Assembly: GCA_035758565.1 (NCBI GenBank)
Contig: DASTXL010000001.1
Span: forward strand, 203,242 to 267,241
Source: Candidatus Saccharimonadales bacterium
Lineage (GTDB): Bacteria; Patescibacteriota; Saccharimonadia; Saccharimonadales; UBA10212
Length of the DNA: 64,000 nt
Direction: 5' to 3'
Shown here: positions 7,702 to 63,679 of the stretch, one piece after another
Numbering within the stretch: position 1 is the first letter of the stretch
How the letters are laid out: the number at the start of each line of letters is the position of its first letter
The notes under the pieces: generated by a model
Databases searched by the model: none
Seen by the model: the letters and a program-made list of their open reading frames with translations, nothing else
What the model was told of the DNA's origin: nothing
Position numbers and translations under genes: made by a program

Positions 7702-8366
7702 TGGCTACGTCTCCTGATGTAAGGAAAAAGAGCAGCCCGAGCGGCGATTCACTCGACGCCCGGCGCGATGAGAAAAAACCATCGGTTTTGTCTCATAAGG
7801 CCGAAGGCCGCAGTTACGAATCTCGCTTGAAAGTGGCCTACAACACTAAATTCGCTCGTGAACTCAAAGACGAGCTTAAGCTAGATAACATCAACCAGGT
7901 TCCAAAGTTAGAGAAGATTACAATTAACGTTGGCCTGGGTCGTGCCAAAGACGATAAACGCTTGCTGGAAGTTGCTGCCAATACTATCCGCAAAATTACT
8001 GGTCAGCAACCAATCGAAACTGTGGCCAAACAGTCAATCGCAACCTTTAAGCTGCGCGAAGGTAACAAAATCGGTATGAAGGTTACCTTACGCGGCGACC
8101 GTATGTACGATTTTGCCGATCGCTTGATCAACATTGTTCTCCCACGTCTGCGCGACTTTCACGGCACTAGCAACCGGGCTTTTGACCGCCAAGGCAACTA
8201 CAGTATTGGCCTAACCGACCAGTCGGTCTTCCCCGAACTTAGTTACGAAGATACAGCTACCGCTCACGGGCTTCAGGTAGTGTTTACTATCCGGACCCAA
8301 GAGCCAGATCACGCTAAAGCACTGCTGAAGAAATTCGGCATGCCATTTGAGAAGGAGAATTCCTAA
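7701..8366 (+). CDS. rplE: 50S ribosomal protein uL5 with an N-terminal extension encoded by repeat copy 4
   Basis: The conserved uL5 core starts near RLKVAYNTKF...QVPKLEKITINVGLG. The only ATG is at 7701, overlapping the rplX stop. In-frame TTG 7827 and GTG 7833 lack a well-placed SD. Confidence 0.85.
   Translation: MATSPDVRKKSSPSGDSLDARRDEKKPSVLSHKAEGRSYESRLKVAYNTKFARELKDELKLDNINQVPKLEKITINVGLGRAKDDKRLLEVAANTIRKITGQQPIETVAKQSIATFKLREGNKIGMKVTLRGDRMYDFADRLINIVLPRLRDFHGTSNRAFDRQGNYSIGLTDQSVFPELSYEDTATAHGLQVVFTIRTQEPDHAKALLKKFGMPFEKENS
7722..7796 (+). repeat. Structured intergenic repeat, copy 4, inside the 5' end of the rplE ORF
   Basis: AGGAAAAAGAGCAGC box; imperfect hairpin CCGAGCGGCGA/TCGACGCCCGG; CGCGAT linker; hairpin ATGAGAaAAAACC-atc-GGTTTTgTCTCAT. 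Confidence 0.7.
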
Positions 8367-8382
8367 AATGTTGAATTTAGTA

Positions 8383-8455
8383 ATGGAAAAGAGCAGCCAG
8401 AGTTTGGATTCACTCCAAACCCTGCGCGATGAGAAAAACCGCAGGTCTGTCTCAT
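8383..8455 (+). repeat. Structured intergenic repeat, copy 5, rplE|rpsN junction
   Basis: TGGAAAAGAGCAGC box; hairpin CAGaGTTTGGA/TCCAAACcCTG; CGCGAT linker; hairpin ATGAGAaAAACC-gca-GGTcTgTCTCAT. Confidence 0.8.
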
Positions 8456-8477
8456 GCTCTGATAAGGAGGATAAATA

Positions 8478-8747
8478 ATGGCCAAGAAATCAATCCTCGC
8501 GCGTGATGCGAAACGAGACAAAATGATCGCTAAATACGCCGCTAAGCGCGCCGAACTCAAAGCAGTCGGTGATTACGAAGGCCTAGCCAAATTGCCTCGC
8601 AATTCTAGCCCGACCCGTCACACTAACCGCTGCGCCGAGACAGGCCGCCCACGCGGATTTATGCGTCAGTTTGGTTTATCTCGCATTGCTTTCCGCGAGC
8701 ACGCCAGCCGGGGCGAAGTTCCAGGCGTAACAAAGAGTAGTTGGTAA
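8478..8747 (+). CDS. rpsN: 30S ribosomal protein uS14 (long, non-zinc form)
   Basis: [13 protein letters not shown] start, [18 protein letters not shown] motif and a ...KSSW end. Confidence 0.95.
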
Positions 8748-25933: not shown

Positions 25934-26085
25934 TGATTTTGAGCCCGCCTTTTGGCGGTAGCAAAATTATCTAGTCGATACGGATGAGAACCCGGGTGAG
26001 TGAGCGAAAGCGAACAAGGGTTCGTACAGGAATGAGCGTGCAGGAATTTATTCCGAACAAGCGAATTCCGTGCAAGCGTAAGCGC

Positions 26086-26103
26086 ATCCCTCTGTCGGCT
26101 CCA
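26086..26103 (+). repeat. Direct repeat of the tRNA-Thr(UGU) 3' end (18/18 nt)
   Basis: ATCCCTCTGTCGGCTCCA is identical to 25916-25933, and lies 152 nt after the tRNA end. Confidence 0.9.
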
Positions 26104-26197
26104 TTTTTTGAACGTGTTTGCGAGGGCGTTCAAGGTGAGGAAAGTTCAGGTGGGTGTTACATTGCTAACCGCACTATACTCTGCTATAGTGCGGTCT

Positions 26198-26602
26198 ATG
26201 CAGACTAAACAAAAGGGAGATCTAGCCCTAGCATCCGCAATTCAATATTTTGTCAGCCAGGATTACGAGGTCTGTCTGCCGATAGGAGACAAGCGTGACT
26301 ATGACTTAATAATTGAGAAGGGTGGCCAGCTGTCTAGGGTTCAGGTAAAGTACGCTGGCTTATACCTGCGCGGCAATCAATGTAAGGTGGGACTACGCAT
26401 AACTGGCGGAAATCAATCATTTCATTATGCAAAGAAATACATGGACGATGCCTTTGACGAGCTTTTTGTTTATACTGCTAAGGGTGAAATGTTCCTTTTG
26501 CCATGGAGTAAAGTAACCGCAAGAAATGAAATCAGTATCGAACATAAAAAATATGAAGTTTTTCGACTGCGCGGAGGTAGTGAAGCGGTCAAACACGTCT
26601 GA
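26198..26602 (+). CDS. PD-(D/E)XK endonuclease, I-Ssp6803I-like (PDDEXK_5-type) homing-endonuclease candidate
   Basis: Start at MQTKQKGDLALASAIQYF. The DYDLIIEKGGQLSRVQVKY core gives a D...(Q)VK motif. The last 32 nt, including the stop, overlap tRNA-Tyr. Confidence 0.55.
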   Translation: MQTKQKGDLALASAIQYFVSQDYEVCLPIGDKRDYDLIIEKGGQLSRVQVKYAGLYLRGNQCKVGLRITGGNQSFHYAKKYMDDAFDELFVYTAKGEMFLLPWSKVTARNEISIEHKKYEVFRLRGGSEAVKHV

Positions 26603-26656: not shown

Positions 26657-26832
26657 TGAAATATGGCTAGTCATTTGACCGGCCATATTTCATCTTGTAG
26701 AGTGGGCTGAACCACCGGCGACAGCTTTAGCTGGCGCAAAAGGGGTTCGGCGTAGCAAAGGCACGCGCAAAAGCTCAGCTTTGAGCATGTCTGAGGCGGA
26801 GAAGCGACGAGCCGCAAGGCGAGGGAAGCGCT

Positions 26833-26850
26833 ATCCCTCCCCCTGCACCA
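26833..26850 (+). repeat. Imperfect direct repeat of the tRNA-Tyr 3' end (16/18 nt)
   Basis: ATCCCTCCCCCTGCACCA here compared with ATCCCTCCCTCCGCACCA at 26639-26656, 176 nt after the tRNA end. Confidence 0.75.
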
Positions 26851-28329: not shown

Positions 28330-28932
28330 ATGTCAAAAGATAGGACTACCATAAACAAAGTCACCCTAGAGACCTTGTATGTAAAAAAGGGGATGTCCAT
28401 GAGCACCATAGCCAAAGAGTTAGGGTGCTCGGTTAACAGGGTGGTCTATTGGATGGATCAACATGGTATTAAAAGGCGCAGCATTAGTGACGCCATTTAC
28501 TTGCACAAAAATCCCAATGGAGACCCGTTCAAAATAATAACGCCCACCACACTAGAAGAAGCCAAGCTTTTAGGCTTAGGAATCGGCCTCTACTGGGGTG
28601 AGGGCACGAAGGCAAATAAGCACTCTGTGCGTTTAGGAAACTCAAATCCACATTTAATCATCGCTTTTATAAAATTTCTTACTATAATATGCGGTGTCAA
28701 TAAAGACCATCTGAAATTTGGGTTGCAACTTTTTTCAGACGTCAGTAAGAATGAAGCCTTGAATTTCTGGACAGAAGCTCTTAGCGTAAAACCCTCGCAA
28801 TTTTATAAGATAACAGTTACTATATCTGGTGCGATTGGAACATACCGGATAAAAAATAAATACGGAGTGTTAACAATCTATTACCACAACAAGAAGCTAC
28901 GAGACGCTTTAGTCTCGATGTTGCCGACATAG
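28330..28932 (+). CDS. HTH + single-motif LAGLIDADG-like homing-endonuclease candidate
   Basis: N-terminal HTH (MSTIAKELGCSVNRVVYWM). LLGLGIGLYWGEGTK resembles a LAGLIDADG motif. The last 10 nt, including the stop, overlap tRNA-Thr(GGU). Confidence 0.45.
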   Translation: MSKDRTTINKVTLETLYVKKGMSMSTIAKELGCSVNRVVYWMDQHGIKRRSISDAIYLHKNPNGDPFKIITPTTLEEAKLLGLGIGLYWGEGTKANKHSVRLGNSNPHLIIAFIKFLTIICGVNKDHLKFGLQLFSDVSKNEALNFWTEALSVKPSQFYKITVTISGAIGTYRIKNKYGVLTIYYHNKKLRDALVSMLPT

Positions 28933-28997: not shown

Positions 28998-29196
28998 GAA
29001 AATTATCACAAAAACTGTGTGATAAAAATTACAGTGCGTATCTCGCCTATGAGCTTAAATGTACTTGTGTTTGTTGGGAGGTAAGCCTGAATGATTTATA
29101 GGCGCAAACACCAGTGAGTCCCGTCCGTTAGCTCGGAGCGGGGCTCTTTATTTTAGAGTTGTTTAATAGTCCCGTATCTGTTAATATATTTTCGAT

Positions 29197-29551: not shown

Positions 29552-29702
29552 AAATAAAGTAGTCTGTCGTAAAGACAGGCTGTTTTATTTTGATATGAGT
29601 TAGGACTTGAACCGATAGGCATGAATGGCCAGTAGGCTATTCATGTTTTCTTTGCTTGGCCGGCTCGGCCAATGCTTGCATTTTGGCCAGCCGCAGAATA
29701 AC

Positions 29703-29724
29703 TCAAGTCCTGTCTCCCCTGCCA
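29703..29724 (+). repeat. Direct repeat of the tRNA-Trp 3' end (22/22 nt)
   Basis: TCAAGTCCTGTCTCCCCTGCCA is identical to 29530-29551. An inverted copy of the T-arm (AGGACTTGAACC) lies at 29602-29613. Confidence 0.9.
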
Positions 29725-29758
29725 AGACGACCGCCTAATTATAGACGGTCGTCTTTTT
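29725..29758 (+). terminator. Rho-independent terminator after the duplicated tRNA-Trp end
   Basis: AGACGACCG...CGGTCGTCT stem followed by TTTT. Confidence 0.6.
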
Positions 29759-48025: not shown

Positions 48026-48265
48026 TCTGTTACCGTGTCTTAATGGGAGATATGCCCGCTTAGACTGTTGCCTAACAGAGTTAATTTTGCTAATATATCC
48101 AGGAACTTGAGCCAAAGACAGCGACGGGGAAACCTTAATAAAGTCGCCTAGGAACAAGAAAGTCTTATAGATTTTTACGTTAGTCTTTTGGCCATAATAG
48201 GCCATTTTTTATAGCTCAAGACACCTTAACAAATTGGTCGATATTGTTAAACAAGGAGAAAACTC
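48026..48265 (+). promoter_or_regulatory. Long untranslated leader upstream of rplJ (candidate L10 autoregulatory leader)
   Basis: 240 nt without a credible ORF, ending in an AAGGAGAAAA SD. L10-leader regulation is known in many bacteria, but no structure was verified here. Confidence 0.25.
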
Positions 48266-63170: not shown

Positions 63171-63372
63171 GTCCGTTTAATTATAAATTGTTAGAGCCTA
63201 TCTGTAAAAGCCTAGACTAAAGCTTGCGCAGCGTATAAAATAACCTCTGTTCTTCGTCTTGTTCTGCAAAACAAAATCATGAGAGGATTCATGATTTTGA
63301 GAGGAGGAATCTAGCGACAAGCCGAAGCTTTTGCCGATAGGCAAAACGAGGCCAAAGCGCAAGTTCCGACGA

Positions 63373-63447
63373 TGGGACGTCGCCAAGTGGTAAGGCACCG
63401 GGTTTTGGTCCCGGTATTCGGGGGTTCGAATCCCTCCGTCCCAGCCA
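63373..63447 (+). tRNA. tRNA-Gln (anticodon UUG)
   Basis: Acceptor TGGGACG/CGTCCCA, 3-bp D stem, anticodon stem CCGGG/CCCGG with loop TTTTGGT, T-loop TTCGAAT, encoded CCA. Confidence 0.85.
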
Positions 63448-63600
63448 AGGCCGATAAATGGATCTTTAGGATTCGTTTGTCGGCCTTGATTTTTTAGATG
63501 GGATTCGAACGGGTTTGCCGGGGGCAAACCCCGAACCTAGCCCGGCGACCATGGGAGCCGGGTCGCCTTGGCAAAAGTAATTTTTCTTTTGCCGGCGAGG

Positions 63601-63621
63601 CGAATCCCTCCGTCCCAGCCA
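63601..63621 (+). repeat. Direct repeat of the tRNA-Gln 3' end (21/21 nt)
   Basis: CGAATCCCTCCGTCCCAGCCA is identical to 63427-63447. An inverted T-arm-like GGGATTCGAAC lies at 63500-63510. Confidence 0.9.
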
Positions 63622-63630
63622 TACAAAAAA

Positions 63631-63655
63631 CCGGACCATACTGGTCCGGTTTTTT
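63631..63655. terminator. Bidirectional terminator after the duplicated tRNA-Gln end
   Basis: CCGGACCA...TGGTCCGG stem flanked by an A-run and a T-run. Confidence 0.6.
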
Positions 63656-63679
63656 GTATGTTGATGTATAATTCACTCA

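Follow-up and report, generated by a model that had tools for sequence, protein, structure and literature searches.

The closest described system is a repeat associated with the tyrosine tRNA genes of Escherichia coli. This 178-bp repeat was reportedly described in 1978, and its rtT RNA is said to have been described in 1991 by Bosl and Kersten. To our knowledge, RtT is known only as a narrow enterobacterial Rfam family, and a literature search gave no report of RtT-like units outside enterobacteria. In the tyrT-tyrV locus of E. coli K-12, one unit separates the two genes and three further units follow tyrV. The E. coli units have the closing helix GGGGAAGGAT...ATCCTTCCCC and end in the last 19 nt of tRNA-Tyr, they are scored at 133-137 bits by the Rfam RtT model (RF00391), and the annotated sRNA rttR reaches from just after tyrV to the copied CCA. 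Trailers of tRNA operons can also yield other RNAs, for example 3'ETS-leuZ of E. coli, a stable sRNA sponge which is cut from the 3' external spacer of a tRNA operon and ends at the terminator region. At att sites of the T-loop type, a repeat running from inside the T loop to the tRNA end is expected. In papers that cite Bosl and Kersten, the rtT RNA is described as the processed product of one repeat unit which may modulate the stringent response, and the E. coli RNA is 171 nt long and ends exactly at the copied CCA.

Here, we analyzed a 64-kb stretch of DNA from a CPR bacterium of the Saccharimonadales, and this whole stretch is called the window below. Four of its five tRNA genes, those for Gln, Thr(UGU), Tyr and Trp, carry a unit in their trailer, and we regard these units as a variant of RtT. 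Based on its structure, we read the unit behind tRNA-Gln, with moderate confidence, as an RtT-type gene for a tRNA-derived trailer RNA that mimics an acceptor end. The layout points to a widespread class of tRNA-derived RNAs which imitate the acceptor end.

The unit behind tRNA-Gln and its sister units

The original prediction had described an exact 21-nt duplication of the tRNA-Gln 3' end 153 nt downstream, an insert which begins with a hairpin and a T run and carries an inverted T arm and two GC-rich hairpins, and a strong bidirectional terminator behind it, and had counted the locus as the fourth instance of the same architecture in 64 kb. All of these elements were recovered in our analysis (Table 1). 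The last 21 nt of tRNA-Gln, CGAATCCCTCCGTCCCAGCCA, are the template of the downstream copy and occur exactly at 63427-63447 and 63601-63621; by our own arithmetic, an exact 21-mer repeat within 600 nt has a chance probability of p ~1e-10. The copy consists of the 3' part of the T loop, the 3' strand of the T stem, the 3' strand of the acceptor, G73 and CCA. It extends into a degenerate T arm (GAGG-CGAAT-CCTC), which is separated from an acceptor-like 5' strand by the hairpins. The unit covers 63448-63621 on the tRNA strand, between the tRNA hairpin and the second terminator. The hairpin directly after tRNA-Gln looks like an intrinsic terminator, and this strong terminator-like structure separates the tRNA from the unit, for which no convincing promoter of its own was found. 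The only open reading frame over the 153-nt insert (63198-63527, minus strand) crosses the tRNA and was taken as spurious.

Table 1 Features of the tRNA-Gln unit, its sister units in the window and the ortholog of the Thr unit.
Feature	Position	Strand	Remarks
tRNA-Gln(UUG), CCA encoded	63373-63447	+	ARAGORN; Rfam RF00005, 63.7 bits
Hairpin 1, AAGGCCGA...TCGGCCTT	63446-63488	+	19-20 pairs, then ATTTTTT
Hairpin 1 with T run	63446-63495	+	terminator-like in terminator scan; leader of the Gln unit
5' arm of Gln unit	63499-63510	+	helix P1, GGGATTCG with CGAATCCC of the copy (alifold)
P2 hairpin, GGGTTTGCC-GGG-GGCAAACCC	63511-63531	+	arms 63511-19/63523-31
P3 hairpin, CCCGGC/GCCGGG or GGCGACC/GGTCGCC, loop GACCATGGGA	63541-63567	+	arms GGCGACC/GGTCGCC at 63544-50/63561-67
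P4 hairpin, GGCAAAAG-TAATTTTT-CTTTTGCC	63570-63593	+	arms 63570-77/63586-93
Degenerate T arm, then copy of tRNA-Gln 3' end	63597-63621	+	exact over 63601-63621
Terminator 2, ends the Gln unit	63620-63660	+	perfect 19-nt arms, A run before, T run after
Thr(UGU) sister unit	25934-26103	+	three inner hairpins, 18-nt 3' copy, motif GGATGAGAAC
Tyr sister unit	26657-26850	+	terminal minihelix-like hairpin GCAAGGCGAGGGA-AGCGCTA-TCCCTCCCCCTGC, then ACCA
Trp sister unit	29552-29724	+	hairpin with T run, arm AGGACTTGAACC, 22-nt 3' copy
Thr-unit ortholog	L141 7892-8061		

The inverted T arm, GGGATTCGAAC (63500-63510), is a perfect complement (11/11) of the tRNA-Gln T arm at 63424-63434, and over eight bases it is equally complementary to the downstream copy (63601-63608). 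It is one strand of a closing helix which is formed with the 3' copy. Since the 5' arm pairs with the duplicated T-stem/acceptor strand, the RNA would close into a mimic of the acceptor and T stem in which G-CCA is single-stranded, and the hairpins P2-P4, of which P4 was absent from the list in the original prediction, stand in place of the rest of the tRNA body. An alternative closing helix, TGGGAT/GTCCCA, is given by the MFE fold and leaves GCCA unpaired. The TGGGAT of the arm in this helix resembles TGGGAC, the 5' acceptor strand of tRNA-Gln.

All four units are built in the same order: a hairpin after the tRNA, a spacer of ~10 nt, the complementary arm, two to three hairpins and the 3'-end copy, with a unit length of 164-194 nt. 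Exact copies follow tRNA-Thr(UGU) (18 nt, 26086-26103) and tRNA-Trp (22 nt, 29703-29724), the 18-nt copy behind tRNA-Tyr (26833-26850) has two mismatches, and no 3'-end copy was found for the fifth tRNA of the window, Thr(GGU). The arm of each unit is complementary to the T loop, the T stem and, in some units, the 3' strand of the acceptor. The copies begin inside the T loop, at positions that vary among the units from ~55 to 60, and run through CCA, and arm and copy together make the closing helix. Structure prediction of the inserts, which had been suggested as a check in the original prediction, gave this closing helix together with the inner hairpins. When the four inserts were compared, no significant sequence similarity was found among them.

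Each sister unit has its own peculiarities. In the Thr unit, the closing helix is composed of the acceptor-like AGTCGATA/TGTCGGCT and GGATG/CATCC, and only CCA is left free. The first strand of this helix corresponds to the 5' acceptor strand of its tRNA, altered by two C-to-T changes which keep G-U pairs, and these G-U pairs fall on the + strand. The terminal hairpin of the Tyr unit has 13 pairs and a 7-nt loop. Its copy, ATCCCTCCCCCTGCACCA, is identical to the tRNA-Tyr 3' end of a relative (L142, 8510-8527), and the window's own tRNA-Tyr has a different acceptor stem which is internally compensated. The Tyr copy looks like a fossil of an older acceptor stem, and since it has ceased to match the tRNA in front of it, the mimicry does not stay exact in every unit. 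In the Trp unit, one hairpin is long and tipped by GCC-AGUA-GGC, and the unit is followed by a terminator (29726-29758).

Several other readings of the units were tried and rejected. They were not detected as tRNA genes or pseudogenes by ARAGORN or by the Rfam tRNA model, ARAGORN gave no minus-strand tRNA or tmRNA, and no Rfam tRNA-like family matched. Apart from tRNAs and the L10 leader, Rfam searches at the gathering threshold and at E<=10 gave nothing but noise over the units. Hammerhead, box C/D, attC, bridge-RNA and omega-RNA elements were dismissed for lack of a model match, an adjacent enzyme or a conserved scaffold across the units. An origin from a prophage attP was rejected as well, as the viral contigs with the Gln or Trp 3' end turned out to be an unrelated match, whole tRNA genes or different classical att sites.

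Some neighboring features of the window can be recorded here. The L10 leader (Rfam, gathering, 44.1 bits) lies at 48094-48218 (+), upstream of rplJ. In the tRNA cluster, an open reading frame at 26108-26602 (+), directly after the Thr unit, matches PDDEXK_5 (PF11645, E = 1.4e-20), the family that includes the intron homing endonuclease I-Ssp6803I, and the last 32 nt of this frame overlap tRNA-Tyr. A second one (28330-28932, +) is of endonuclease type, with an N-terminal HTH that resembles the DNA-binding domains found in HNH endonucleases of phages (phrog_7545, 1.5e-10) and with a motif that looks like LAGLIDADG but is not confirmed by Pfam. In the relative L141, a GIY-YIG gene (8328-8618) follows tRNA-Tyr.

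Distribution of the units

When species genomes were scanned for the 3' end of tRNA-Gln, most of the matches came from Collinsella, and eight Saccharibacteria were also found. The tRNA-Gln unit is present in three of these eight Saccharibacteria and absent in the other five, and it was found in 57 loci of the Collinsella group, about half of those sampled. In Collinsella, tRNA and hairpin are followed by CGGAGGGATTCGAACCC, which is exactly complementary to the T arm of the tRNA. GC-rich hairpins come next, and GAATCCCTCCGTCCCA stands last, ~171 nt behind the tRNA. About half of the Collinsella loci keep the 5' part of a unit that is truncated at its 3' side, a G-to-A change without compensation is common in the 5' arm, and some loci hold tandem arrays. 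Covariation was uninformative in this group, as the sequences are too similar.

When metagenomes were scanned for the double copy, 12 further contigs or loci were obtained, and their inserts belong to several body types. One of them, L127 (minus strand, oriented 1-550), carries an array in which at least four units, differing in body type, follow one another in tandem, and every unit has a separate hairpin and a separate 3' copy. The copy at the end of two L127 units is a variant, CCCTCATCCCCAGCCA, as would suit a tRNA-Gln whose acceptor stem differs. Type C bodies are found behind tRNA-Tyr in the window and behind tRNA-Gln elsewhere. Extra direct tRNA pieces stand upstream of the copy in some units, namely GGCATTCGGGG (variable loop and 5' strand of the T stem) in type B and GGGGTTCG both in type C and in the window units of Thr and Tyr, and the hairpins of such units are an insertion within the T loop. 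A related arrangement was seen in an uncultured bacterium whose tRNAs have no encoded CCA (L111, 1-440, minus strand), where part of tRNA-Gln is repeated directly behind the gene. This partial copy runs from the anticodon stem to TTC, has a T-loop insertion of ~65 nt and closes with the last 18 nt. A Logan contig of the same sample as the window (L001), the only other contig with the neighboring genes, breaks inside tRNA-Gln at about window position 63402, and loci with units may be hard to assemble from short reads.

A search of species genomes with the DHH protein for close relatives gave no match, and syntenic tRNA clusters of relatives were retrieved through the L33 protein, by which the window was also assigned to a Candidatus Saccharimonadales MAG. 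Across seven such loci, two of which (L144 and L145) are near-duplicates, a unit was found at 1 of ~25 tRNAs, compared with 4 of 5 in the window. As the units occur at so few tRNAs of the syntenic relatives, they are dispensable, and with close relatives mostly without units, the pattern is lineage-enriched and not general to CPR. One relative, L142, has an exact empty site for the Thr unit.

Two further conserved elements were observed at these tRNA clusters. First, a 5' leader of ~120 nt (63255-63372 in the window) precedes several Saccharimonadales tRNAs, including Thr(UGU) and Thr(GGU) in L140 and Thr(GGU) and Trp in L142. This leader has two hairpins, the motif GAGAGGAGGAAyCTAGCsACAAG and the end TTCCGACGA directly before the tRNA, and it has no Rfam match. 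Second, a conserved GTGTTTGTTGGGAGGTAAGCCTGAATGATTTATAGGCGCAAACAC followed by a terminator hairpin (window ~29078-29172) lies just upstream of the L33 gene. It also occurs in L140, L141 and L142, between tRNA-Thr(GGU) and rpmG, is not in Rfam, and is possibly a ribosomal-protein leader or attenuator.

The enrichment in the window genome would be explained if the units were small non-autonomous mobile cassettes, which insert at tRNA 3' ends, carry or regenerate their target and can pile up. This idea is compatible with our main reading, and it agrees with the L127 array with its different units and two copy variants, with the related type C bodies at tRNA-Tyr and tRNA-Gln, and with the homing-endonuclease-type genes in the same tRNA cluster. 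However, no enzyme is linked to the units, each tRNA has a unit with its own specific arms, none of the four window inserts is a copy of another, and two distant genomes share the Thr unit at one position, in agreement with vertical descent. We consider a mobile cassette unlikely.

Conserved pairing and proposed role

The predicted folding of the units is supported by several comparisons. The fold of the Gln unit beats 200 of 200 shuffled sequences (z = -4.05), and its homologs in L073 and L127 retain P1 and P2. Five of the nine pairs of P2 are changed on both sides (four homologs), and 93.8% of the cells in the Gln-unit alignment are paired, compared with 35-55% in slid-partner controls. The P3 loop is kept in the homolog L127_A, where the stem is changed to CTCGGC/GCCGAG, and the U-rich P4 loop is kept in L073 (TATTTTTT). 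The Thr unit and its ortholog in L141 share ~81% nucleotide identity, compared with 58% for the neighboring DHH protein. Six of the 41 predicted pairs differ between the two, and all six stay paired (four compensatory, two via G-U). In L141, the Thr copy has diverged from its tRNA (ATCCCTATGTCAACATCA), and the 5' arm has changed along with it so that pairing is retained, which indicates a constraint on pairing and not on identity with the tRNA. The energy difference between the strands is weak (mean -2 kcal/mol; 11 of 17 units are more stable on the + strand), and a duplex-energy test of the specificity of the 5' arm for its own copy was noisy.

These data bear directly on the view that each unit is a decaying partial tandem duplicate of the tRNA, which has no function and whose hairpins are terminators and leftovers. 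The further direct tRNA pieces (in types B and C, in the Thr and Tyr units of the window and in L111), the arrangement of tyrT, unit, tyrV and units in E. coli and the truncations in Collinsella would all be in line with decay. However, decay is at odds with the identity of the Thr unit relative to the neighboring protein and with the preservation of every changed pair, the P2 helix of the Gln unit covaries, and no tRNA model matches the units, so this account appears improbable.

Another possibility is an integration scar, in which site-specific integration at the T loop duplicated the tRNA 3' end as attL and attR, and a later deletion left ~150 nt. Copies that run from inside the T loop to the tRNA end, precise empty sites in relatives, tandem arrays and a Tyr copy that resembles a displaced older 3' end are features which such a scar could also leave. 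The 153-nt insert, however, holds neither integrase nor cargo, a Pfam search of selected window open reading frames near the tRNAs gave no recombinase, and the classical att blocks of viral contigs are longer and integrase-adjacent. Moreover, the similar size and internal layout of all units are not expected from random deletion, the 5' arm is complementary to the copy and changes along with it, and the insert is kept with compensatory changes. An integration scar is thus very unlikely. An assembly artefact or recent segmental duplication, for which one could cite only the short-read contig of the same sample that breaks inside tRNA-Gln, is refuted and has practically no chance, since inserts unrelated in sequence fit neither segmental duplication nor misassembly and the layout is found in many independent assemblies, including isolates and E. 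coli K-12; the occurrence of the layout in other Saccharibacteria, Collinsella and E. coli also bears out the original prediction of an architecture that recurs at independent loci. That prediction had made no mention of the RtT layout, of the pairing of the inverted T arm with the copy or of the scarcity of units in close relatives.

If the Gln unit is an RtT-type gene for an acceptor-end mimic, as we favor, its RNA would be transcribed by read-through from the tRNA promoter. Release and stabilization could be achieved by the enzymes of tRNA end-processing, with RNase P cutting at the foot of the closing helix and with 3' trimming and CCA repair at the copied end, for which the 171-nt E. coli RtT RNA offers a parallel. 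Its tRNA-like end may then make the RNA a decoy or competitor of proteins reading the acceptor end of the cognate tRNA, and acceptor-targeting tRNases, nucleotidyltransferase toxins, RelA-type sensing of uncharged ends and synthetases are candidate targets. This decoy role is our best guess at a function, and we hold it with low confidence. As for the origin of the units, the simplest history would be that a portion of the tRNA gene, at its 3' side, was duplicated and then remodelled. Gain, loss and array formation may proceed by recombination at the short repeat, which would explain both the arrays and the precise empty sites.

On a larger scale, RtT could be one member of a cross-phylum class, present in Proteobacteria, Actinomycetota and Patescibacteria, whose members are minihelix mimics of the acceptor end of their own tRNA, are retained by selection in reduced CPR genomes and serve as decoys or sensors of the cognate tRNA. 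We put this forward as a tentative proposal. The targets would then be acceptor-end toxins or stringent-type signalling, or the RNAs would be alternative carriers of acceptor ends. If the units are of the RtT kind, the defining principle of the class is an acceptor/T-stem mimic of the neighboring tRNA that ends in NCCA, and the class is broad enough for comparative analysis. In that case, purifying selection in a very small CPR genome also argues for a role. In practical terms, the units break assemblies and can pass for att sites or tRNA fragments in annotation.

Comparison with known systems

The window units share several features with E. coli RtT. First, each lies on the strand of a tRNA gene and in its trailer, with a size of ~175 nt compared with 178 nt. 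Second, they contain a direct copy of the last 18-21 nt of the tRNA, which starts in the T loop and includes CCA. Third, a 5' arm complementary to the copy closes the structure, leaving a single-stranded 3' tail and enclosing small GC-rich hairpins. E. coli RtT can likewise be read as a T-loop insertion (GGTTCGA, insert, ATCC...). In addition, the words GGATGAGAAC and GAGCGAAAGCGA are common to the Thr unit of the window and the E. coli units, and GGAGCGAAGCGACG is common to the E. coli and Collinsella units. The shared words are not derived from tRNA, and by our estimate their chance probability is ~0.01 for the 12-mer and ~1e-4 for the 14-mer. The two are, however, built from very stable mini-hairpins of the GCGAAGC type, for which convergence is possible. 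The RF00391 model gave no match over the Gln, Thr and Tyr units at E<=10 or over the Trp unit, which was searched at the gathering threshold (45 bits) only, and a covariance model of the Thr unit, run to connect it with the other units, Collinsella and E. coli RtT, matched only its two training sequences. What ties the units to RtT is therefore their architecture, their length and a few shared words.

There are also clear differences from RtT. The window units follow tRNAs for Gln, Thr, Tyr and Trp in a CPR bacterium, each is preceded by a terminator-like hairpin which is not found in E. coli, and the inner hairpins are unlike in number and order. While the closing helix in E. coli leaves an 8-nt tail, that of the Thr and Gln units can cover the whole acceptor strand and leave only (N)CCA. 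Furthermore, the E. coli unit is repeated in tandem 3.14 times, whereas the window units are single.

With the attL/attR pairs that integrases of genomic islands and prophages produce, the units have in common a second copy of the tRNA 3' part behind an intact gene, polymorphism of filled and empty sites, and arrays. They differ in that the window repeats are only ~150 nt apart and without an integrase, and in that the insert is structured, with an arm complementary to the repeat and with compensatory changes. By contrast, the att sites in viral contigs are longer blocks which start from the anticodon region and adjoin an integrase. With 3'ETS-leuZ, the units share the origin of an RNA in a tRNA-operon trailer, but 3'ETS-leuZ has no copy of the tRNA end. 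Finally, as in the tRNA-like domains of tmRNA, acceptor-T minihelices and viral 3' structures, the units mimic an acceptor/T-stem helix whose terminal NCCA is unpaired, and other structure takes the place of the remaining tRNA body. Unlike in those domains, there is no T loop, and the mimic copies the neighboring tRNA of its own locus.
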